Shown: in pieces, positions 41,684 through 50,255 of the stretch
Position numbering within the stretch: position 1 is the first letter of the stretch
Layout: each line of letters opens with the position of its first letter
Source of the DNA: an uncultured Phycisphaerales bacterium
GTDB taxonomy: Bacteria; Planctomycetota; Phycisphaerae; Tepidisphaerales; Tepidisphaeraceae
Direction of reading: 5' to 3'
Length of the DNA: 64,000 nt
NCBI GenBank assembly: GCA_963755915.1
Contig: CAVWLP010000002.1
Location: 1,408,001 to 1,472,000, forward strand
Program-made: the position numbers and the translations under genes
Notes under the pieces: model-generated
Databases searched by the model: none
What the model was told of the DNA's origin: nothing
What the model saw: the letters and a program-made list of their open reading frames with translations, nothing else

Positions 41684-41926
41684 TTAATTCAACCGCGCGG
41701 CACGTTCATCCCGCGTCTTGTTCGCCGCCCGACTGATCTGGTCGGCGGCATTGTTTGCAAGATTCGCCGCCTCATCCGCGGCCCGGTTGGCTGCATTTGC
41801 GCGTTCATCCGCGGCCCGGTTGGCTGCTTTGGTCCGTTCATCCGCGGCCTTGTTGGCGGCGTTGGTCCGTTCGTCCGCTGCCTTGTTGGCCGCATGTTTC
41901 GCGGCCTGATCTTCTGCGGGGTTCAT
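41684..41926 (-). CDS. Small Ala-rich protein of 11-aa repeats (LEA-like)
   Basis: Six ANxAADExxxA-type units; AAGGTG RBS. Confidence 0.7.
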   Translation of the reverse strand: MNPAEDQAAKHAANKAADERTNAANKAADERTKAANRAADERANAANRAADEAANLANNAADQISRAANKTRDERAARLN

Positions 41927-41990
41927 TGTTTCACCTTTTCGTAATCGATGCCGCCATCGCCGGCGATGCGTCGAACGACAAGCCGGTTTA

Positions 41991-42341
41991 CTATCGCGCT
42001 CGCCTGAAAGCCCAAAACATTCGATCCACCGCTTCGCTGTTTTCGCGATTCAGGCGGTCTTCAGGCTGTTGGGAGAATTGCACGTCGCGGCGCCAGTCAT
42101 CGAATTCCCCTCGCCGTCCGTCCGCGCACACCACGCTGTCCAGGTGCCGCGAGCGCGTCTTATCGGTGAATATCACCAATTTCCAGCCCTCAACCAAAAA
42201 CTCAACGGTCTCATCCGTCCAATATTGGTACGGATTCTTGAGCTTCGGAACCGACCGGCCGGTTGCCACGTTACGCAGAAGCCCCAGCGCTTCATCCGAC
42301 GTCACGGTCGTCAATTTCACTTTTTGGTTTGATATCGACAT
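41991..42341 (-). CDS. Hypothetical protein
   Basis: ATG overlaps upstream stop (TGATG). Confidence 0.65.
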   Translation of the reverse strand: MSISNQKVKLTTVTSDEALGLLRNVATGRSVPKLKNPYQYWTDETVEFLVEGWKLVIFTDKTRSRHLDSVVCADGRRGEFDDWRRDVQFSQQPEDRLNRENSEAVDRMFWAFRRAR

Positions 42342-42682
42342 CAGCGTCCTTTCCGCGTCCACCAGATGACGATGCCCGCGCCGATCGCCGCGCCGAGGAG
42401 CACCGCGGTTTTGGGATGGTCGCGCACGCTGCGCTCGAAACTCTTCTCCACCGAGCGAGCCTTGGCGCGGGTGCGGTTGAAGGAATGGCGCGCGTATTGC
42501 CCAACGTCTTCCAAACTGTTCCGCACAGCTCCGGCCGCCTGCCCGGCCGCTTCGTGCACCGCGTGAGCCGTGCTTCGAACGCTTCCGCCCACACTTTGGG
42601 CTGCAGATCGGATGCCGTCCGCGACACTGTCCACGACATCTGCCGTTTGGTGCGCGATTGTTTGATCGTCATCTGGTTTCAT
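42341..42682 (-). CDS. DUF883/ElaB/YqjD-like tail-anchored protein
   Basis: Helical repeats then VRDHPKTAVLLGAAIGAGIVIWW. Confidence 0.8.
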   Translation of the reverse strand: MKPDDDQTIAHQTADVVDSVADGIRSAAQSVGGSVRSTAHAVHEAAGQAAGAVRNSLEDVGQYARHSFNRTRAKARSVEKSFERSVRDHPKTAVLLGAAIGAGIVIWWTRKGR

Positions 42683-42862
42683 GATTCATTCCAAAAAAAA
42701 GCAAACTGGTTTACCGTGCAGCGACCTGCGACCGCGCCACAGTGTGCCGATGTTCTGGTGTTCGCATATCTCCTCCGGAAGACACGTCGCGGAATACCAA
42801 CAGCAATCCCGACACCAACCCACACCCGGCACAAAGGGCACGTTCGCTAAAAATAAAGGGCG

Positions 42863-43081
42863 TTAGGCGTTTTTCGCACCCGCGCCGAATACGACCATGA
42901 GCAGCCCGACCAGTCCGGCCGCGCCGCCGCCGAAGATGTACCACGCCGTCGCCTGGGTAAATTTCCCGGTGAACGTATTGCTGATCTGGTCCGCCGCCGA
43001 GTGGGACGCGTTCATCCCGACGATCAGCAAGGCGATTCCCGCCACCAGCAGGACGATTCCGAAAACACGTTGCATACTCAT
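42863..43081 (-). CDS. DUF3185 family small membrane protein
   Basis: GIVLLVAGIALL..NASHSAADQISNTFTG..TAWYIFGG; GGAGG RBS. Confidence 0.8.
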   Translation of the reverse strand: MSMQRVFGIVLLVAGIALLIVGMNASHSAADQISNTFTGKFTQATAWYIFGGGAAGLVGLLMVVFGAGAKNA

Positions 43082-43128
43082 AACTGCCTCCAATTTCTAA
43101 AAAAGAGTTCCAAATTTCGTGGACGGTC

Positions 43129-43410
43129 TCACGTTGTATCTGCTACCGCCAGCGATAAATGCAATTCCGGACCGTCGCCGGCGCGTTGATCGGCGCTTAT
43201 GAGCAGGCTTCGTGGAAATGCGAATCGCTCCCACGAACAACTGTTGCATTTTTCGCAACGCTCCCCCCGCGGAATTCGTGCAGCCATCGGCTCAAAGCCG
43301 CATGCCCGGCACTGCAACCGATAGGGAAAGACCGCGCTTCGCCATCCGTCCGAGACCGGTAATTCCGGCCCCTGTTCATCTGATCCAAATGGCTCCATCG
43401 CAATCGACAT
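43129..43410 (-). CDS. Small Zn-ribbon hypothetical protein
   Basis: CRACG..CEKC; GGAGG RBS. Confidence 0.6.
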   Translation of the reverse strand: MSIAMEPFGSDEQGPELPVSDGWRSAVFPYRLQCRACGFEPMAARIPRGERCEKCNSCSWERFAFPRSLLISADQRAGDGPELHLSLAVADTT

Positions 43411-43438
43411 AGGGACCTCCATTCCCCCAGGGGGTAAC

Positions 43439-43642
43439 TCAGTGGGCGACCGATGGCGCCGTGCTGTGCATTCGCTGCCATACTTCCCAGCGGTTGATGT
43501 GAATGCCGGCAGTTGCCTCAAAGCCCAGGCGCACCGTTGTCTTCTTAATCTCAATCACGGTGACTTTGAGCGCCGACTCAATGGGGCCGATGGGATCTCC
43601 CACGACGACCGATTCGCTGTTCCTTCTCGATAGAACCAACAT
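43439..43642 (-). CDS. csrA: Carbon storage regulator CsrA-family RNA-binding protein
   Basis: MLVLSRR..ESVVVG..VTVIEI..VRLGFEA..INRWEV; AAGGAG RBS. Confidence 0.9.
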   Translation of the reverse strand: MLVLSRRNSESVVVGDPIGPIESALKVTVIEIKKTTVRLGFEATAGIHINRWEVWQRMHSTAPSVAH

Positions 43643-43737
43643 GACGATACTCCTTTTCTTCGGCCGATCGCTCGGCTTAACGGAAGATGGCTCGAAGCGT
43701 CAGCAACGTCGCGGTAAGAAGCCCGGCCGGCCGGCCG

Positions 43738-43970
43738 CTACGACGGGCTGTCTTGCGCGGACACAAAATAAACCCGGTGCTGCGCGCCTTGCACGAGCGT
43801 GTCCGAGACAACGCGGCCGTTGATTGTGACCGTGTTGGTCTTCGGATCCACGGTAACCGCTTCATTCGCTCGCAGCGGACCGGAATAATCGATGCGATCG
43901 TTTGTCACGTCATACACCCAGATCCTGCCATACGTCGGCGCGGCTCCTTGATAAATGAAACACTCAGTCC
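43738..43970 (-). CDS. Small beta-rich hypothetical protein or remnant (start unclear)
   Basis: GRIWVYDVTNDRIDYSGPL..VTVDPKTNTVTINGRVV; no clear start after the leader terminator. Confidence 0.4.
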
Positions 43971-43997
43971 GTTGTTCAAAACGATGCTCTGAAAAAC

Positions 43998-44110
43998 AAA
44001 AAAACCGACGCAATCCGAATCCCGGAGTTTCGGGATCCAATTGCGTCGGCTTACTTGTTAACGGGTCTTCCAGCTTTTGGCAGGAATACCCTTCATTGAG
44101 TCATCCGAAG
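43998..44110 (-). promoter_or_regulatory. Structured leader RNA with intrinsic terminator, copy A
   Basis: UCGGAUGACUCAAU-stem-AGUAAGCCGACG, long terminator stem, U7. Confidence 0.8.
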
Positions 44111-44161
44111 ATATCGCGCTCCGAAGTGAGGCGACGTTTTTTAGGAATCACTAACAAAATC

Positions 44162-44189
44162 ATCATACGCCTGCAAAATCGCATAGCAA
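44162..44189 (-). promoter_or_regulatory. Putative sigma70 promoter feeding leader copy A
   Basis: TTGCTA-N16-TATGAT on the minus strand. Confidence 0.55.
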
Positions 44190-44225
44190 GAAGATTCCCG
44201 TTTATTCGCTATACTATTCTTCTAA

Positions 44226-44603
44226 ATGCAGACTCAAGGCGAAATTGAGAGCGCTATTTCCAGGGGCATGGTGCAGTTCGAGCAGGAATACCTGGGCCGC
44301 GGCCCCAAAGACGTTCGCGTTCACTTGATCGATGAGCTGGTAGTCGTGCGGCTCAAGGGGGTTCTGACCGCCGCCGAGCAGCACCTGGTCAAGACCCTGC
44401 CCGCCGAAAAGGGCCGCGATTTGCTCAAGCAAGTGCGCACCCACCTCATTGAAACCGCCCGGCCGATGATGGAGGCCATGGTGCAGGAAATCACCGGCGT
44501 CAAGGTACTAAGCCTCCATCACGACATCAGCACAGTGACCGGAGAAGAGGTTGTACTCTTCACGCTTGCCGAATCACCTCTGTTCCGCGATAAAAAAAAA
44601 TAG
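44226..44603 (+). CDS. DUF2294 / MpsC family protein
   Basis: GEIESAIS..FEQEYLGRGP..GVLTAAEQHL..LLKQVR..SLHHDISTVTGEEVVLFTL. Confidence 0.9.
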   Translation: MQTQGEIESAISRGMVQFEQEYLGRGPKDVRVHLIDELVVVRLKGVLTAAEQHLVKTLPAEKGRDLLKQVRTHLIETARPMMEAMVQEITGVKVLSLHHDISTVTGEEVVLFTLAESPLFRDKKK

Positions 44604-44741
44604 ATTCGTCGCGGATGGATCAGATGCGCGATTCAGAGCGAAATCCAAACATTTGTTCATTGCAATTACCAGGCCAGCGTCCTACGCTGTAGAGCGATGT
44701 AGGAGTAAATGCCCCCTCCATCATGCAGTGAATACAATTCC

Positions 44742-44847
44742 TCGGATGACTAAATAGCTGGCACCCCGCTCTCCCGGGGGGCCGGTTGCAGAGTATGCCG
44801 ACGTGATTGAATCCCGTATCTCGGGATTGGATTACGTCGGTTTTTTT
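44742..44847 (+). promoter_or_regulatory. Structured leader RNA with intrinsic terminator, copy B
   Basis: UCGGAUGACUAAAU-stem-AGUAUGCCGACG, terminator stem, U7. Confidence 0.8.
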
Positions 44848-44887
44848 CTTTGTGTAGTCGGATTCCGAATAGCCGAGAAAGGGCGAC

Positions 44888-45190
44888 ATGCTAAGCACAG
44901 ATGAACTAGCCAACGGCAAAACCTTCGTCCTGAAATTGAAGGACGCAAGCGGAACGTCGTTCCAATGGGTCCAGGTTCTGCGCGGCGCCATCGCCCGGCG
45001 ATGGTACGACATTTACCGGGCCTCCGATTGGGTTGCCTTAAGGCTCGAAGCCGCCGCCGTCTTTCTCAAACCTGTAACCGAGGCCCAGGCCGATCGAAAC
45101 TGCAAGACCGGCCAGTGCATCGTGATCAAAACCGAAGCCGTAAAGGAAAACGAATTGGTGCGCCCACCTGAAAATCTGAAAACGCAATAA
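44888..45190 (+). CDS. Hypothetical protein
   Basis: AAAGGG RBS; first ORF after leader B. Confidence 0.6.
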   Translation: MLSTDELANGKTFVLKLKDASGTSFQWVQVLRGAIARRWYDIYRASDWVALRLEAAAVFLKPVTEAQADRNCKTGQCIVIKTEAVKENELVRPPENLKTQ

Positions 45191-45234
45191 GTTTCGCAGA
45201 TCTTCCGGTTGTTCAGCCACCAGAAAGTAAAAGG

Positions 45235-45648
45235 ATGGACCATTCCACTGATCGATCGATGGCAGAGCAAATCGCCGAGGCGGCGACCGCCTTCCAGCAG
45301 GAACGGACCGGCCACCCCCCCAAATCCGTCAGCGTCGTCCTCAGTGGAGACACCCTCGTTGTCACGCTGCACGGCGCACTTTCCCCCGCTGAGCAGGCAC
45401 TGGCACTCAGCTCCGAAGGCGCGGCCAAGGTGCGCGAGTTTCACCAACAGTTGTTTCTGAATGCTTCCGACACCCTCCGCCAGGAGATCACCCGCATTAC
45501 CGGAATGGATGTGCGCGAGGCCACCGCAGAAGTGGAGCCCACGTCCGGATCCGTCGTCCACGTCTTCACCAGCGGCACGATGGTGCAGGTGTTTCAGCTC
45601 GCCGGCAATGTGCCGACTGGAAGTTTCAACACCACAACCAAGACATGA
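45235..45648 (+). CDS. DUF2294 / MpsC family paralog
   Basis: FQQERTGHPPKSVSVVL..LHGALSPAEQAL..ITRITGMDVRE. Confidence 0.85.
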   Translation: MDHSTDRSMAEQIAEAATAFQQERTGHPPKSVSVVLSGDTLVVTLHGALSPAEQALALSSEGAAKVREFHQQLFLNASDTLRQEITRITGMDVREATAEVEPTSGSVVHVFTSGTMVQVFQLAGNVPTGSFNTTTKT

Positions 45649-45682
45649 AAAGCATCACCTCACTTTCGTCACGGAGACAGCG

Positions 45683-45877
45683 ATGATTCGATTCCTTGGC
45701 AGTCTCGTTGTGCTCTTCGCGATCGTCGCCGGCATCGGATATTACCGCGGCTGGTTCCATTCGGAATCAATAGGTACTCCTGGCCACGATGCCGTCACCG
45801 TCACAGTGGACAAAGACAAGATCAGCCAGGACAAGGCCAGCGCGGAGCAACAGGTTCAGGATCTGACGCACAAATAA
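45683..45877 (+). CDS. Small membrane-anchored protein
   Basis: GGAG RBS; TM then GYYRGWF..VTVDKDKI. Confidence 0.7.
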   Translation: MIRFLGSLVVLFAIVAGIGYYRGWFHSESIGTPGHDAVTVTVDKDKISQDKASAEQQVQDLTHK

Positions 45878-45894
45878 TCAAAAGCATTTCGGTC

Positions 45895-46194
45895 GTGTGC
45901 TTTTCGTCGGAGATAATGATCAACATGGTTGAAACGATTCGCGACACAGGACTGCATTTCACCGAATTCGGTTATGCGCTGATAGCGCTAAGCGAGGAGA
46001 CCGCAACAGCGATTGAAATATCCATGAAGCAGCAGGGGTTCGACTGCGAAGCCTTTGAACGGGAAGGTGCGATTACCCGCGCTAATGACGCCGTTCCCAA
46101 ACAGTGGTGCGTACGCTTTTCAAAAGCGACCGATTTGCAATCCGCCCAGGACGCCATCGATTGCTGGAACAGATCACTTACCCCCGGCGCGTAG
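45895..46194 (+). CDS. Hypothetical protein
   Basis: ORF fills the gap; GGAG before ATG near 45916. Confidence 0.45.
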   Translation: MCFSSEIMINMVETIRDTGLHFTEFGYALIALSEETATAIEISMKQQGFDCEAFEREGAITRANDAVPKQWCVRFSKATDLQSAQDAIDCWNRSLTPGA

Positions 46195-46217
46195 GTCCAC
46201 AAATCCCGGCCCCATAT

Positions 46218-46442
46218 TCAGACACGCCCCGTTTGAACCATTCCCGCCGGCACACTGCCATTCGACAATTCGTCGACCTTCGCCTTCGCATCCGATATGG
46301 AGTCTGCGAACCCGTAACTTCGATCCATGCCGGATTCCCTTCGCGTGATATACCACCGGGAATCCGCGGCATTCGGCTGGTGAAGCTGGGTCAAAACAAA
46401 ACCTCGATATGATGTCCGCTTGATAATGTCTTCGATTTCCAT
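46218..46442 (-). CDS. Small hypothetical protein
   Basis: GAAGGAAAGG RBS; first ORF after leader C. Confidence 0.6.
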   Translation of the reverse strand: MEIEDIIKRTSYRGFVLTQLHQPNAADSRWYITRRESGMDRSYGFADSISDAKAKVDELSNGSVPAGMVQTGRV

Positions 46443-46481
46443 GTGACCTTTCCTTCATCCGATCACGGACGACGCTCGAAT

Positions 46482-46595
46482 AAAAAAAAGCCGACGCGAC
46501 CAAATCCCGAGGCGTCGGGATTCAATTGCGTCGGCTTACTCGCTGACGGGTCCTCCGGCTGTTCGCCGAATTACCCGTCATTTAGTCATCCGAAG
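46482..46595 (-). promoter_or_regulatory. Structured leader RNA with intrinsic terminator, copy C
   Basis: UCGGAUGACUAAAU-stem-AGUAAGCCGACG, terminator stem, U8. Confidence 0.8.
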
Positions 46596-47125
46596 ACTTC
46601 AATATTATCCTGCAAGAGCGGAACTCTTGCCGCTTTAACAACAAATCACCCTACGTTTATCAGCCCGTTAATCAAGACAATTCCCGCAATAATTGACCTT
46701 GGACCGTTTGGGGTGGTTTTTTCAGGGCTGGATTGCCATCTTCAGATTCCCCATTGCTGAAATCGGTTGCCGTCAGGGTAGCGGCGCGAAATCTGCTTGG
46801 CTCACAATCGCAGCTCACGCAAAATGTCAATTGGCCAATATCTATGCGTCAGAAACCGATCGATCACCAATTGCTCTGTGCGGTTACCTCCCCAAATCTG
46901 GCACTGCATTTTTCCCCTTCAGTCTACTAAATTTGCTCCCTCCTAAGGATCGACCCGCGACCAACTTAAGCCTGCCAGTCCTCGATCAACGCTCATAGCT
47001 TTGGGAGTGCACACATGCTCATTCAAAGCAGGCGACCGTGCCGAAATCGTCTCCTCGGAGCACCTGAAGAAACACCAGTAGCCGAATAGCCGTATTTTTT
47101 CGAACGTGCGAAGGGATACCGCATC

Positions 47126-47359
47126 ATGGAAAGCACTAAATCCGCGGCAAGTGACAATCAACACGAGCCCCATCCCGGACCGACCAGAGCCGCGTCAGGC
47201 GCAGAAACCGATGTTGCCCCGGCCCAGCGAATCCCTCCACCGCAGCCGCCATCCGCTTCCGCGCCGCTTAACGGTCCGCCCAAGCCCGACGCACCCCCGC
47301 AACCCACCCCCACTCCGCGCCGGCCAACCCGGCGAAAATGGTTCCTTTTGGCCCTGCTT
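47126..47359 (+). pseudogene. 5' fragment of the EmrA/HlyD adaptor gene split by IS21
   Basis: ...RRKWFLLALL joins in frame to IVVLALAAYFF at 50268 once the IS and one target repeat are removed. Confidence 0.85.
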
Positions 47360-47481: not shown

Positions 47482-48372
47482 TCACGCCGTCTGGCCGGCG
47501 GATACCCCCACATCAGAAGACAACGGCGGCTCTGTCACGGTGTCTTCCGGGGGGGAGCACCCTTCATCGCCGGCGGTACTCCGCCGTCCTTTTGGATTTG
47601 TCTTTTCCGGTGTCCCGGATTGGCCTGCCGTGAGCGAAGTCGAATGGCCCCCATGCCGAAGGCGGTAGCTCTTGCCGGTGATGTTGATGATCGTGGCGTG
47701 CTGCAGGAACCGATCCAGAATGGCCGTGGCCGCCGGCACGTCGCCGATCAGCTTGGCCCAGTCCTCCAGTGGACGGTTGCTGGTCATCATCGTCGAGCGG
47801 TTCTCGTGCCGGCGCATGACGATCTCCAGCAGGCATTCGCCGCTGCGCCGCGGAAGCTGCTTCATTCCCATGTCGTCGATGATAAGCAGATCAGGCTTGA
47901 GATACCGGGCCAGCGTCTTGTCCTGGGCTCCCAGATCCTCGTCGCCTAAAAAGTCGCGGGCCAGGTCGAAGATGGATCGGTACAGGACCACCAAGCCGCT
48001 CTTGATCGCCTGGTGTCCGATGGCCTGGGCCAAAAACGATTTGCCCACGCCGGGCGGACCCAGCAAGAGCACGTCACGTTTGTCACGAATGAACTGGCCG
48101 GCGGCCAGATCGTGAATCTGTTTGCGTTTGATGGAGGTGTTGAAGGAGAAGTCGAACTCGTCGAGGTTTTTGGTGTCGCGGAACATCGCCGCCTTGACGC
48201 GCCGGCCGATCTGCCGGCTGGATCGGACGTTCAGTTCATCCTGAAGGATCAGTTCCAAAAACTCACTGTGGTCGAGCCGATTGCCGGCCGCCTCGCTCAG
48301 GCGAACTTCAAGGCTGCTCGCCAGACCTGAAAGCCGAAGTTGCTTGAGCGTCTGCATCAACGAAGGTCTCAT
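47482..48372 (-). CDS. istB: IS21 helper ATPase IstB
   Basis: LKQLRLSG, FDFSFN, GPPGVGKS, LLIIDDMG, TSNRP, AILDRF. Confidence 0.95.
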   Translation of the reverse strand: MRPSLMQTLKQLRLSGLASSLEVRLSEAAGNRLDHSEFLELILQDELNVRSSRQIGRRVKAAMFRDTKNLDEFDFSFNTSIKRKQIHDLAAGQFIRDKRDVLLLGPPGVGKSFLAQAIGHQAIKSGLVVLYRSIFDLARDFLGDEDLGAQDKTLARYLKPDLLIIDDMGMKQLPRRSGECLLEIVMRRHENRSTMMTSNRPLEDWAKLIGDVPAATAILDRFLQHATIINITGKSYRLRHGGHSTSLTAGQSGTPEKTNPKGRRSTAGDEGCSPPEDTVTEPPLSSDVGVSAGQTA

Positions 48373-50144
48373 GGGGTGGACTCCCTTCGGCTCTGCTCAG
48401 GGCAGGCCTGTAAAGGTTGTGCGGCAGGCAAAGCCTCCGCTTGGGTGATTGCGTCGCGTACGAACTGTCCGTAATCGGCCAGTCCGCGGATGATTGGATG
48501 TTCCTGAACAAACTCGAAGTGTTGTTGAACCGGTGCGCCGTTTTGGTGTTCGATGAGCTGCCGCAGGGAGGCGCAGGTGATACGCGCCATGCCCCAGAGC
48601 AATCTCGCAGGCTCGTTCCACGGCCGGTCGCGGCTGCTGATTGGCCAGCGACAGCAGCCCCATCAACACGCGCACGCCTTCGATGCCGCGATGCTGAAGC
48701 ATTGACTGCGCCCACTGCGTGGCGTGCGGCCCGATGCATTCGATCCGCTGGAGAAGCCAGGTCGTTCCACGCTCGATGCCGCTGATCTTCTCCGGCAGGA
48801 TATGGGCGTCTTGCGTCGAGAACCTGCCCGGCGGACGCTGCGCGTGCAGAGCGATCGCACGCATCTTCTGATCGAACAGCCGGACCGTGCGCCGTCCCAC
48901 CGCGCCCAGACCCGCTGGCCCAAAAACTCCGGCGGGACCGAATAGTACGCCCCCTTGATCTCCACGTGCCCGTCGCGGTGAACACTGCGCAACGCCTCGG
49001 TGAAAAGATCGAATCGCACCGGCGGCAGAGCCAACAGTGCCGGCTTCTCTACCTGCTCGAAGACTTCCTTCACCTGCCGCCGCGTCGTGCCGTGGATGCG
49101 CGTGTCGGCCACGCTCTTCTCCCACGTCAGCAGATGCGCGTTCTGATCCGAGAGCGAGGCGAATTGCCGGCCTTTGAGAGCATTGCTCTTCACATAGCCG
49201 ATGCCCCGCTCGATCTTCCCCTTGTGCCGCGGCGTGTACGGCTTGGTGGGCAGAATGGCGATTCCATAATGTTCGGCGAACGACCGGACCTTGGGACACA
49301 ACTCCGCCTCGAACCAGTCCGCCCGCGTCACCGCCGCGCGAAGATTGTCGATCACCAGCGCCGACGGCATCCCGCCGAAGTGCGTAAAGGCATTTTCCAG
49401 ACAACGCAGAAAATCATCGGTCGTCTGCCGCTCCACCGCCTCGGCGTACCCCTTGCGGCTGTGGCTCAGCACAATGCGGAAGACCCAGGTTGCTTTGCGT
49501 TTGCCGTCAGGACCGACCAGGGCGCACCCCGGCCGAAGTCCACCTGCGCCTCGGCTCCCGGCTCGCATTCCATCCGGCGAAAGGGCGCCGGCGCGGCAGC
49601 CGAGAGCTTCTTGATGAACCGGCGCACGCTGTAATAGCTGCCGGCATAGCCGTGATCGCTGGAGATGTCTTGATAAATCCGCTGGGCCGTCAGCCCGGCT
49701 TCCAACTTCTGAACAATGACCTCACGCCAGGGCGATGCCGTACTGACCGACCCGATGGTGCGCCGGATAACCCGGTGGCGCGCTTTCCGAGCCGCCTGCG
49801 GCGAGCACCGTCGAGCCGCCTGCGGCGAGCACCGTCGAGCCGCCTGCGGCGAGCACCGTCGAGCCGCCTGCGGCGAGCACCGTCGAGCCGCCTGCGGCGA
49901 GCACCGTCGAGCCGCCTGCGGCGAGCACCGTCGAGCCGCCTGCGGCGAGCACCGTCGAGCCGAGGGGCGCGCTGGCCGGTTTTGAATCCGATCCGGCGCC
50001 GCAGGATCGCCGCCCGACAACCGGATGTGGCGTCCAACGGTCTCCCGGTGAACGCCGAGTTGGCGGGCGATGTTCCGATTGGACCAGCCGCTGCGCAAGT
50101 GCCAAAATTGCTTGTACTTCCGCCATCTTGAGTTGATTGGCCAT
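48369..50144 (-). CDS. istA: IS21 transposase IstA (several frameshifts; internal tandem repeat)
   Basis: MANQLKM, GWSNRNIARQLGVHRETV, EPGAEAQVDFG, IDNLRAAV, HKGKIERGIGYVK, HGTT, YSVP across frames. Confidence 0.88.
49788..49962. repeat. 24-bp perfect tandem repeat x7.3 inside istA
   Basis: Unit CGAGCCGCCTGCGGCGAGCACCGT. Confidence 0.95.
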
Positions 50145-50255
50145 CCCACCATTGGCTTGCGGCAACCGCCGAAAGCCAAGGTCGATAACCCAATCTCCTG
50201 TGCCTCAAAATGGCCGGTTTTGGTGCGCCCTCAATTGGCCGGTTTTGCGCGCCCC

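Follow-up and report, generated by a model that had tools for sequence, protein, structure and literature searches.

Three leader elements and two DUF2294 genes

The window, by which we mean the whole 64-kb stretch of DNA that was analyzed, carries three copies (A, B, and C) of a non-coding element, all of them at the positions given in the initial annotation and all recovered by a covariance model as well (Table 1). They share UCGGAUGACU(A/C)AAU, a variable hairpin, AGUA(A/U)GCCGACG, a long hairpin, and a run of 7-8 U. The layout that had been claimed for them (core, hairpin, core, terminator) is seen in the alignment of the three copies, where the mean column identity, flanks included, is 73%. 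When the elements were folded and compared with shuffled sequences, the z-scores were -5.8, -6.6, and -8.0, and none of the 200 shuffles made for each element was equally stable.

Table 1. Leader elements, their parts, and the neighboring genes in the window
Feature	Position	Strand	Evidence and remarks
Leader copy A (class 1)	43998-44116	-	Covariance model 124.2 bits, E 3.8e-29; folding
Copy A, 5' core UCGGAUGACU	44108-44099	-	
Copy A, 3' core AGUAAGCCGACG	44055-44044	-	Terminator stem and U tract follow, down to 43998
Promoter-like site for copy A, TTGCTA-16-TATGAT	44189-44162	-	Consensus match; UCGG about 47 nt downstream
Leader copy B (class 1)	44734-44847	+	Covariance model 100.3 bits; folding
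Copy B, UCGGAUGACU	44742-44751	+	
Copy B, AGUAUGCCGACG	44792-44803	+	
Copy B, terminator	44797-44841	+	
Copy B, U tract	44841-44847	+	
Leader copy C (class 1)	46482-46601	-	Covariance model 128.7 bits, model span 46484-46601; folding
Copy C, UCGGAUGACU	46593-46584	-	
Copy C, AGUAAGCCGACG	46540-46529	-	
Copy C, U tract	46489-46482	-	
csrA, 67 aa	43439-43642	-	PF02599, 1.1e-13; second gene behind copy A
ORF behind copy A	43738-43959	-	Matches the C-terminal portion of an ORF of 137 aa in relatives
T1, DUF2294/MpsC paralogue, 125 aa	44226-44603	+	PF10057, 4.6e-38; 109-nt gap to the divergent copy A; proposed trans-acting factor
First gene behind copy B, 100 aa	44888-45190	+	No family; start codon 40 nt past the U tract
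T2, DUF2294/MpsC paralogue, 137 aa	45235-45648	+	PF10057, 1.5e-22; copy-B operon; regulated type
Small ORF, 64 aa	45683-45877	+	Copy-B operon; hydrophobic N-terminus (by eye)
ORF, 89 aa	45925-46194	+	No family; last in the copy-B operon
ORF, 74 aa, behind copy C	46218-46442	-	No family; start codon 41 nt past the U tract

Each element had been described as lying 5' of a gene or operon. The first DUF2294 gene, that of T1, is not led by an element: it is divergent from copy A and upstream of copy B. The 137-aa counterpart that relatives have of the ORF behind copy A starts with a hydrophobic N-terminus; in the window this N-terminal part is absent and there is no clear start codon. ORFs related to the 64-aa ORF of the copy-B operon are found behind eight leader copies. 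On the other hand, csrA is not among the recurrent gene clusters downstream of leader copies, and the csrA theme implied by the first description is a local link. The sigma70-like promoter proposed about 50 nt 5' of copy A is present as a site, but this single site does not exceed the number that shuffled sequences of the region give (mean 2.0).

Parts of the locus are present in RNA libraries, as Logan contigs of soil metatranscriptomes that come from relatives at 88-99% identity; ends, strand, and termination are not readable from such contigs, and uncovered parts of the locus carry no meaning. The contig of one relative covers 44776-45119 and gives a weak indication of RNA bridging leader B and its ORF. 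Contigs from four runs diverge from the window sequence at 43943.

An RNA family ahead of stress genes

The leader RNA is an uncatalogued family that occurs in many Planctomycetes, ahead of stress genes. The claim that it fits no recognized class agrees with a scan of the whole 64-kb window by Rfam 15 (4227 models), which gave no match at the gathering thresholds. At E <= 10, the region 43400-47200 gave four matches at chance level, the best of which, ncr1175, scored 25 bits relative to a threshold of 60 and concerned the terminator only. Literature searches on DUF2294, on planctomycete RNA motifs and riboswitch candidates, and on CsbD stress leaders, largely at the level of titles, brought up no description of the RNA, although the motif-list supplements of discovery papers may contain it.

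The elements had been framed as a local feature in three copies. This framing fails: they are three of the 11 full-length copies that the covariance model identified in this genome, where the copies form three clusters of 3-4, and the targets are mostly general-stress genes. A strict pattern occurs seven times in the genome and its reversed control never. A loose regular-expression search produced 342 matches, mostly spurious, and was set aside in favor of the covariance model. Beyond this genome, the family has members in no fewer than 118 contig stretches from MAGs of Planctomycetota. Its distribution is patchy, the model of the leaders found in the window (class 1) being positive in 5 of the 150 genomes sampled from the phylum, and genomes of this class have 6-12 dispersed copies. 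A further 13 genomes, 11 from the phylum sample plus the relatives G032 and G034, have MpsC and no class-1 match. In 11 of the 13 loci from these genomes, a leader diverged in sequence (class 2) follows T1 immediately and in the same orientation; each of the five genomes tested has just one strong copy of it.

The genes downstream of the leaders are of general-stress types (CsbD, YflT, HSP20, Band 7, and small membrane proteins), the commonest being T2. Other ORFs behind class-1 leaders resemble phosphoketolases and, by eye, fatty-acid desaturases, while the theme behind class-2 leaders is PEP carboxykinase. In this genome, eight copies (B, C, D, E, F, G, I, and K) are followed by a plausible start codon in their own orientation, 30-129 nt past the U tract; copy A has no clear start, and the sequence behind copies H and J was covered in part. 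For T2, 22 of 27 matches start 30-132 nt beyond the element, and T2 is directly behind the leader in 25 of 29 cases. A crude measure, the orientation of the longest downstream ORF, gave only 78 on the same strand versus 36 on the opposite one, which would count against action in cis; the measure is noisy in this high-GC DNA and was given no weight.

The position of these genes bears on whether the element could instead be a multi-copy small RNA acting in trans, by seed pairing or as a protein sponge, with its own terminator and with downstream genes that are independent of it. Several features would suit such an RNA: the element measures about 110-165 nt, is preceded by a promoter-like site, ends in a strong terminator followed by U residues, exists in many paralogous copies in each genome, and has a conserved 5' segment that is single-stranded once the terminator forms. 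Promoter-like sites of the form TTGN..TAnnnT lie upstream of 68 of the 124 leader copies. However, tandem copies lack them, since the second copy starts about 14 nt past the first terminator and there is no space for a promoter. The same lack of space applies to co-oriented starts within 30-130 nt of the element, and the frequent placement of T2 right behind it is not expected of an independent gene. We consider a small RNA very unlikely as the main role, although terminated leaders could act in trans as a second one. The copy number, the clusters, and the patchy distribution are also reminiscent of a REP/MITE-type repeat, or of constitutive terminators spread by duplication without switching. 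Yet across classes conservation is highest in the 5' half, which is dispensable for the terminator, the element keeps a fixed position with respect to T1, T2, and stress genes, and compensatory changes maintain helix P2 (see below), which makes this explanation highly improbable.

A leader with a similar target has been proposed elsewhere. The yjbJ motif of Streptococcus is a candidate leader with a terminator hairpin ahead of a CsbD-like stress gene, and might bind a protein (Narunsky et al. 2024, PMC11109978). According to the accessible part of that article, the likeness lies in the terminator-bearing leader and the CsbD-type gene downstream, but the motif is restricted to Streptococcus and consists of two hairpins, a description that sets it apart from the RNA studied here. 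The article does not use the terms Planctomyc*, Gemmata, or Pirellula.

Competing folds of the leader

Each copy forms a rod-like hairpin made of P1a (UCGG/CCGA), a 3x3 A.G loop, P1b (ACU/AGU), and P2, and the 3' strand of the rod doubles as the base of a strong intrinsic terminator. The covariation of the inner helix and of the terminator, which had been suggested for the window copies, holds in 115 sequences: 94.9% of the cells are paired, 27 of the 36 pairs show changes on both sides, none of 500 shuffles reaches as high, and sliding the partners leaves 34-44% paired. In the P2 helices, 10 of the 12 pairs have changes on both sides (94-96% of cells paired), and in class 1, P1b is paired throughout (100%). 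Within that class the P1a core hardly varies, which puts it out of reach of covariation. The pairing of P1a in class 2 (n=8) is 81%, with only one of five measures clearly above shuffles, a weak signal. Between the classes, P1b goes from ACU/AGU to AUU/AAU or AUC/GAU in class 2 and an A.G loop pair becomes C-G, in a comparison made by eye, the joint MAFFT alignment having put the cores of the two classes one base out of register.

The proposal that the two folds compete proved right. When the RNA ends after CCGACG, all 11 copies have P1a-P1b-P2 as their minimum-energy fold, whereas in the full-length RNA the terminator is favored by 5.3-10.8 kcal/mol. The segment CCGA(CG) is common to P1a and to the terminator base in all 11 copies, and forcing P1a leaves unpaired the base of the stem that adjoins the U tract. 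These mutually exclusive folds bear out the ON-type attenuator layout of the initial annotation, and the conclusion that the element is a cis-acting attenuator is well supported. Attenuation by an upstream ORF was considered and rejected: a possible mini-frame, AUG-ACU-ARA-UGA, has its AUG in no more than 71 of the 115 copies (U 71, C 34, A 10 at column 14) and in no class-2 leader.

A covarying structured sensor domain and a closing helix that excludes the terminator are both found here and are features of ON riboswitches. The main alternative to control by a protein is a protein-free switch of this kind, whose purine-loop rod would bind a small molecule or an ion, DUF2294 being the commonest regulated or neighboring gene, for instance because it deals with the same ligand. 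The near-invariant nucleotides in the internal loops, the overlap of P1 with the terminator, and the themed regulons (stress in class 1, PEP carboxykinase in class 2) are in its favor, and so are the tandem copies, as in some riboswitches. The adenine pbuE, guanidine-I, and Na+ (DUF1646 motif) riboswitches share with the leader an aptamer-like fold in the 5' UTR, a P1 that competes with the terminator, and tandem arrangements. The leader differs from them in that it has no Rfam 15 match and is adjoined by a conserved protein gene that is not regulated and that a riboswitch has no need of. Moreover, the class-1 gene set is too mixed for one metabolite.

A DUF2294 protein as candidate regulator

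Across the phylum, the leader is strongly associated with DUF2294. Of 40 T1 genes, 36 have a leader within 400 nt; 31 of these are divergent from it, five are upstream on the same strand, and none is behind it. Among the 80 metagenome loci found by T1 alone (with a single T1 protein as query), a class-1 leader is present within 500 nt in 71, and for seven of the other nine, less than 300 nt of upstream sequence is present. T1 and leader are divergent in 69 of the 80, with a gap of about 80-450 nt and modes near 110 and 200. Together with the class-2 loci described above, these counts represent a linkage to a candidate regulator gene, and a leader in which antiterminator and terminator overlap is likewise a property of protein-dependent antitermination. 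Among 41 relatives, in tallies that include the unpublished genome G014, 15 have leader and MpsC, two the leader only, two MpsC only, and 22 neither. The family is matched in the Bacillus subtilis control genome as well. The genomes with a leader where MpsC was not found are G012 (81% complete), G023 (95%), and G093 (89%). No MpsC gene is present within 600 nt of 73 of the 124 leader copies, so most copies would need to be served in trans. The idea that both DUF2294 genes of the window belong to the leader system stands as far as linkage goes, but their roles differ: T1 adjoins the leader and is never behind it, while T2 is the commonest gene behind it.

A riboswitch gives no reason for the unregulated, divergent T1 to be kept at a set distance in these 69 loci, nor for T1 to stay with the diverged, single-copy RNA of class 2, and we regard it as unlikely. 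In favor of T1, the protein is 75-88% identical across the 80 metagenome loci and has invariant R42, K68, R71, and R79, at which T2 has T, Q, H, and S; against it, T1 by residue count is not basic overall. A search of its predicted fold (high confidence, pLDDT 95.5) by Foldseek against the PDB gave nothing at E <= 0.001, the best matches being TRAPP Bet3/TPC6 (E ~0.01, TM 0.40), then YslB and H-NOX. A wide VIA fold search gave a best Z of 6.6, which is noise level, and no recognizable RNA-binding fold appeared in these searches. The folds of TRAPP Bet3/TPC6, YslB, and H-NOX bind small molecules; they would suit a sensor as well as an RNA binder, and the fact that these weak matches are ligand-binding and not RNA-binding domains can also be counted in favor of the riboswitch. 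For MpsC, sequence and profile searches of the PDB were empty, the ESM Atlas gave nothing outside PF10057, and NCBIfam gave nothing. The Pfam scan of T1 gave PF10057 only, plus one match below threshold. A prediction of a T1-T2 complex, run without controls, scored 0.00 and bears neither way on binding.

The Pfam name MpsC derives from gene adjacency in staphylococci. The reported absence of MpsAB/DabAB is right insofar as DabA was not found in this genome, which is 81% complete, but the framing of the locus by these transporters is weak. No phenotype is reported for the deletion of mpsC in the accessible part of one study (PMC6689103).

One may also suppose that the terminator is conditional and that T1 is not what binds it. 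T1 would then act at the shared divergent promoters, as a sensor or by binding DNA, or would be an enzyme, and CsrA, a cold-shock protein, or temperature would act on the RNA. The short shared intergenic region (82-444 nt) is a common layout of a transcription factor and its divergent target, csrA stands behind copy A, the class-1 core has a GGA, and the HSP20 targets, along with the desaturase-like ORFs seen by eye, fit a thermosensor. But what the dispersed copies share is a transcribed RNA core and not a promoter operator, and the T1 of class 2 is upstream on the same strand instead of divergent. In place of the usually several loop GGAs of Csr/Rsm targets, the class-1 core has one that is invariant (the 3' side of P2 is mostly GGGGGC), and the class-2 core, GGCAGAU, has none, a pattern that tells against CsrA as a general binder; the absence of csrA from the recurrent downstream clusters also speaks against it. 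Taken as a whole, this explanation seems to us quite unlikely.

Operation of the switch by T1 finds its closest parallel in HutP and the hut terminator of Bacillus subtilis, where, as in class 2, the gene of a small regulator is followed by a terminator/antiterminator leader that gates the operon. HutP is activated by a ligand, and we presume the same of T1. The RNA target of HutP consists of UAG repeats. The leader has in their place a rod with A.G loops, class-1 leaders are dispersed with T1 mostly divergent, and T1 has only PF10057 in Pfam, no relative in the PDB by sequence, and no HutP among the listed fold matches. In the BglG/SacY/LicT-RAT and ANTAR systems, as proposed here, an antiterminator hairpin stabilized by a protein overlaps, with its 3' strand, the 5' arm of the terminator and one regulator serves several leaders. 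The RAT is a 30-nt hairpin and the ANTAR target a pair of hexaloop hairpins, whereas the rod is about 65 nt long with three purine loops, and T1 has no domain beyond PF10057. Pfam, NCBIfam, and PDB searches did not place T1 in the HutP, CAT/PRD, ANTAR, PyrR, or TRAP families, and the fold searches gave no convincing match.

On balance, T1 probably operates the leader as a conditional terminator/antiterminator, much as HutP acts on its own target; we infer here both the binding of T1 to the RNA and the conditional read-through. Transcription would start at a promoter 50-65 nt upstream, and the first ~65 nt would fold into the rod, with P1a, the 3x3 loop (A.G, N.A, G.A), P1b, another purine loop, and P2, which has additional A.G mismatches. 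P1a shares its 3' strand with the base of the terminator stem, which has ~21 pairs and abuts the U tract. By default the terminator would form and transcription would stop. If the rod is held closed, 4-7 basal pairs of the terminator beside the U tract would be blocked, and the RNA polymerase would continue into the stress genes. T1 is the most likely factor to keep the rod closed, possibly in answer to a small molecule or to a carbon or stress signal, while T2, which lacks the invariant basic residues of T1, may be an output or feedback component. If T1 is the binder, mutants in UCGGAUGACU or AGUAAGCCGA are expected to differ from the wild type.

More tentatively, DUF2294 may be a new family of sequence-specific RNA-binding antiterminators, whose cognate A.G-studded rod exists in two co-diverged classes. 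In the Planctomycetota of soil and peat, a switch of one operon, that of PEP carboxykinase (class 2), could have expanded to a regulon for general stress with about ten leaders per genome (class 1), with T2 as feedback partner and a carbon or inorganic-carbon signal. If this were true, a phylum with few genetic tools would run classic general-stress genes by attenuation, and not by a stress sigma factor alone, using an RNA and a protein that form an antitermination pair not related to any known one. It would also provide the first testable function for DUF2294, a family of which a library of 1.84 billion proteins contains 1680 representative clusters at E <= 0.001.

The leader RNA family and its spread

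The three non-coding elements (A, B and C) that the initial annotation had placed around csrA and two DUF2294/MpsC paralogues (T1 and T2; Pfam PF10057) were confirmed, with their shared layout, by alignment and by folding against shuffled sequences. Aligned on their own strands, they have a mean column identity of 73%, flanks included, and have in common UCGGAUGACU(A/C)AAU and AGUA(A/U)GCCGACG, each followed by a hairpin (variable after the first, long and GC-rich after the second), and then 7-8 U. Their folding z-scores against dinucleotide shuffles are -5.8, -6.6 and -8.0, and 0 of 200 shuffles were equally stable. T1 is divergent from A, with a gap of 109 nt, and upstream of B, so that no element leads its own gene.

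The ORF behind A corresponds only to the C-terminal part of a 137-aa ORF of relatives (hydrophobic N-terminus; cluster 14), and in the contigs of relatives from four RNA-library runs, agreement with the window ends at 43943 in every case, with loose ends that resemble one another. Since this ORF also lacks a clear start, the 5' part of the gene seems to have been replaced by leader A in this genome. An IS21-type pair lies just past the leader locus (47482-50179, minus strand), next to an ORF with about 8 tandem repeats of the 8-residue unit AARRCSPQ. Further small stress-type genes are found on the csrA side (41684-43093, minus strand).

Features of the leader locus and its surroundings, in window positions
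Feature	Position	Strand	Match or remark
Leader A	43998-44116	-	class-1 leader RNA
Leader B	44734-44847	+	class-1 leader RNA
Leader C	46484-46601	-	class-1 leader RNA
ORF behind A	43738-43959	-	no clear start
csrA, after first ORF behind A	43439-43642		PF02599, 1.1e-13
T1 (DUF2294/MpsC), between A and B	44226-44603	+	PF10057, 4.6e-38
100-aa ORF, behind B			
T2, second and more divergent DUF2294 gene, behind B	45235-45648		PF10057, 1.5e-22
64-aa ORF, behind B			hydrophobic N-terminus
89-aa ORF, behind B			
74-aa ORF, behind C			
IS21-type pair: IstB-like ATPase and rve-domain integrase/transposase ORF	47482-49568, 49466-50179	-	Pfam; IstB-like PF01695, 4.9e-66
DUF3185 protein	42863-43093	-	csrA side of locus
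113-aa protein	42341-42682	-	C-terminal hydrophobic segment; no Pfam match
80-aa protein	41684-41926	-	AANKAADERT-like repeats

The initial annotation had not matched the leader RNA to a class, and a cmscan of the whole window with the 4227 models of Rfam 15 at gathering thresholds gave no match either. A permissive scan of 43400-47200 (E <= 10) returned only four chance-level matches, the best of which scored 25 bits (threshold 60) and aligned to the terminator alone. Full-text literature searches, which do not reach supplementary motif lists, found no description of this RNA; the available text of PMC11109978 concerns another motif, confined to Streptococcus.

The count of three copies holds for the window, but the genome has 11 and the family is wide among metagenome-assembled genomes (MAGs) of Planctomycetota. 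A strict pattern matched seven times in this genome (0 in the reversed control), and a covariance model built from these seven copies found 11 full-length ones (A to K; E <= 5.6e-15), grouped in three clusters of 3-4 copies each, with one copy on its own. Its weaker matches were mostly terminators on the opposite strand. The most divergent copy in this genome, K (G000:C3:1359595-1359709, plus strand; CCGGACGACAAGAU), has a divergent T1 gene upstream and is followed by two ORFs resembling, by eye, acyl-ACP desaturase and fatty-acid desaturase.

Among 41 relatives, a set that takes in the unpublished genome G014, the element occurs in 17 (this one included): all 12 others of the genus and 4 other genera of the family, with up to about 12 sense copies per carrying relative. 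Under stricter search filters, it was not found in 16 genomes from other families of the class. A pattern scan with one genome per species matched at least 118 contig stretches. Among the matches listed (80), nearly all are MAGs labelled Planctomycetota (Tepidisphaeraceae, Phycisphaerales, Pirellulales, Planctomycetaceae, Isosphaeraceae, Gemmataceae, Thermoguttaceae and one Candidatus Kuenenia), and the top-scoring named copies come from MAGs labelled Phycisphaerales and Tepidisphaeraceae. The sole label 'uncultured delta proteobacterium' among the matches listed belongs to a contig with three leader copies (L124). In an even sample of the phylum (150 other genomes), the model of this leader type matched 5 genomes under strict filters, 4 of them with MpsC, and PF10057 was present in 15. 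The distribution of the family is wide but patchy.

Competing folds and position before genes

The leader can form a rod made of helix P1a (UCGG/CCGA), a purine loop, P1b (ACU/AGU) and P2, where the 3' strand of P1a doubles as the base of the terminator. The covariation noted in the inner helix and the terminator holds in an alignment of 115 copies: P1b, P2 and the terminator are 94.9% paired, changes on both sides affect 27 of the 36 pairs, 0 of 500 column shuffles matched the observed values, and pairing drops to 34-44% once partners are slid. As these copies were fitted to the model and mostly chosen by a pattern spanning both cores, the alignment is biased to the structure and silent on the cores. 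In 73 copies chosen without the core pattern, the C-G, G-C and G-C pairs of the P1a core are kept in 72-73; being near-invariant, P1a represents conserved complementarity without covariation. Conserved purine-purine oppositions recur in a regular series along the rod (A13.G90, G15.A88, A19.G84, A26.G77 and A31.G72), each in 103-115 of the 115 copies.

Folding backs the competition between the 5' helix and the terminator. When the RNA ends after CCGACG, the minimum-energy fold is P1a, loop, P1b, loop and P2 in 11/11 copies. The terminator alone reaches -28 to -37 kcal/mol, and in the full RNA it beats the rod by 5.3-10.8 kcal/mol. If P1a is forced, the remaining predicted hairpin stops short of the U tract. 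Since a hairpin that does not reach its U tract should not terminate transcription, neither should this one. A repeat without switching is the least credible of the alternatives and highly improbable.

The elements do stand 5' of genes, as annotated. In the eight copies assessed in this genome, a plausible co-oriented start codon follows 30-129 nt past the U tract (B 40, C 41, D 72, E 42, F 129, G 39, I 30 and K about 44 nt); copy A has no clear one behind it. Across 124 copies, T2 matches begin 30-132 nt past the element in 22 of 27 cases, which leaves no room for a separate downstream promoter. A crude test on the orientation of the longest ORF gave 78 on the same strand vs 36 on the opposite one; we consider it noisy, as the genes are very small and the DNA is high in GC. 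With start codons this close behind the element, a family of trans-acting sRNAs appears highly improbable.

A TTGN-N18-21-TAnnnT match lies upstream of 68 of the 124 copies. An extra GGAGC...GCUCC hairpin precedes 23 (36 with a looser pattern); this semi-conserved stem lies about 20-60 nt upstream of UCGG, e.g. in copy D (G000:C2:2128486, plus strand), and is lacking both in the second member of tandem pairs and in the second leader class described below. Several genomes have two complete copies in series, each with its terminator, about 14 nt apart (L152 1309-1541; L139 5158-5386; L118 6273-6516; G042 contigs C126 and C127). Contigs of relatives from four soil metatranscriptome runs include csrA, the operon behind copy B and portions of the leaders; one of them (44776-45119) bridges the interior of leader B and the first ORF. 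These contigs show neither ends nor strand, and DNA can occur in RNA libraries. Covariation, competing folds and the position before genes together make it very probable that the leader is a cis-attenuator.

Genes behind the leaders and the two DUF2294 paralogues

For each of the 124 copies, ORFs in the following 2.5 kb were clustered together with those of the others, and Pfam was used to identify cluster representatives. By number of leader copies followed by a member, the clusters are DUF2294 (32), DUF3309 (11), YflT heat-induced stress protein (9), DUF1328 (8), Band 7/SPFH (6), DUF3185 (5), HSP20 (5), CsbD (two clusters, 5 and 4, the second assigned by eye), DUF5670 (4) and Transgly_assoc (4). 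These families are typical of general-stress regulons elsewhere, such as the SigB regulon of Bacillus and the RpoS regulon of E. coli. In this genome, two phosphoketolase-like and two desaturase-like ORFs, named by eye, also lie behind leaders.

T1 and T2 have fixed positions relative to the leader, different from each other. The 89 loci examined contain 40 T1 genes: 31 diverge from a leader less than 400 nt away, 5 precede one on the same strand and none follows one. Of 29 T2 genes, 25 come directly after a leader. In the 41 relatives, leader and PF10057 occur together in 15, the leader alone in 2 (G012, 81% complete, and G023, 95% complete), MpsC alone in 2 and neither in 22; counted per genus, as related genomes are not independent, the figures are 4, 1, 2 and 21. 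When metagenome loci were found via T1 alone (best 80 of 490, 75-88% identity), 71 of these 80 had a class-1 leader less than 500 nt from T1. It was divergent in 69 (82-444 nt, modes near 110 and 200) and downstream of T1 in 20. Seven of the 9 misses had less than 300 nt of upstream sequence.

The MpsC loci of 13 genomes with MpsC but no match to this leader type (class 1), 11 from the phylum sample and 2 relatives, were searched without filters. In 11 of the 13, a weak match (11-28 bits) immediately follows T1 and shares its strand; in one the match lies upstream of the gene, and one locus had none. These matches represent a second class built to the same plan: GGCAGAU(U/C/G)G and AUANGCC with a hairpin between them, then a terminator and a U tract, and a TTGACA-N17-TAnAAT promoter of their own. 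A class-2 model found a single strong copy per genome in 5/5 genomes. Compared by eye, class 2 has C-G in place of the A.G loop pair of class 1 and U-A in place of a P1b C-G; the third P1b pair varies among U-A, C-G and U.G, and both the G.A pair and the GG/CC pairs persist. Class-2 P1 is 81% paired vs 27-49% when slid, weak at n=8, and against shuffles the covariation score alone stands out (6/500; n=8). Of nine class-2 loci (L222, L225, L226 and L212 among them), four have a GTP-type PEP carboxykinase behind the leader; the others have T2 with a PEPCK_ATP-like gene (1), a DUF4914 protein (1), argininosuccinate synthase (1) or unassigned ORFs (2).

These leaders are a real, uncatalogued and widespread family of attenuator RNAs with a conserved protein partner. 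The kind of control, by terminator/antiterminator leaders, is a known one.

T1 as a candidate factor closing the rod

The initial annotation had proposed an attenuation regulon in which DUF2294 or a ligand stabilises the antiterminator. The attenuator layout and the coupling to DUF2294 stand, and RNA binding by T1 stays a proposal. Given this genomic coupling, T1 may be the factor that closes the rod of the leader RNA; we lean slightly towards the whole statement, a cis-attenuator whose rod is closed by T1. The main rival is a protein-free riboswitch, which we consider unlikely: it does not predict that an unregulated T1 gene stays attached through class divergence and copy expansion. A regulator-target pair is favoured, since this gene is kept beside the leader across two RNA classes and from one to about 10 copies. 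That T1 acts elsewhere, with another factor on the RNA, is less probable still. GGA is missing from the class-2 core, which makes CsrA an unlikely general binder. The class-1 core contains a possible mini-frame, AUG ACU AAA UGA (44748-44759 and equivalents in other copies), but the AUG is kept in just 71 of 115 copies; hence a leader peptide is unlikely and the frame is probably a coincidence.

The nearest analogue in layout to T1, leader and genes is the hut system, where hutP is followed by its terminator and then hutH. T1 is of a different protein family from hutP and, by Pfam, NCBIfam and profile searches, outside every other known antiterminator protein family. If the proposed role of T1 is true, DUF2294 gains a function, and this reading is highly testable. 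PF10057 is a large family, with 1680 representative clusters at E <= 0.001. It takes its name from S. aureus mpsC, whose deletion is reported, in the available text of PMC6689103, to have given no growth defect or other phenotype. As for the MpsAB/DabAB partners named in the initial annotation, DabA was not found in this genome (81% complete).

Sequence and profile searches found no solved structure of a PF10057 member or relative. The AlphaFold2 model of T1 (59-row alignment) is confident (pLDDT 95.5, pTM 0.87) and begins with a helix, followed by two strands, two more helices and two final strands. Its top Foldseek matches are weak: TRAPP Bet3/TPC6 (E ~0.01, TM 0.40), YslB, H-NOX and several ribosome chains. 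VIA wide gave a best Z of 6.6, inside the tool's stated noise, and Z 4.7-5.4 for a vinyl-4-reductase family protein, a PoxR sensory domain and an RbfA-containing entry. T1 has four invariant basic residues, R42, K68, R71 and R79, where T2 has T, Q, H and S. From helical periodicity, three of the four basic residues are predicted to share a face of the long T1 helix.
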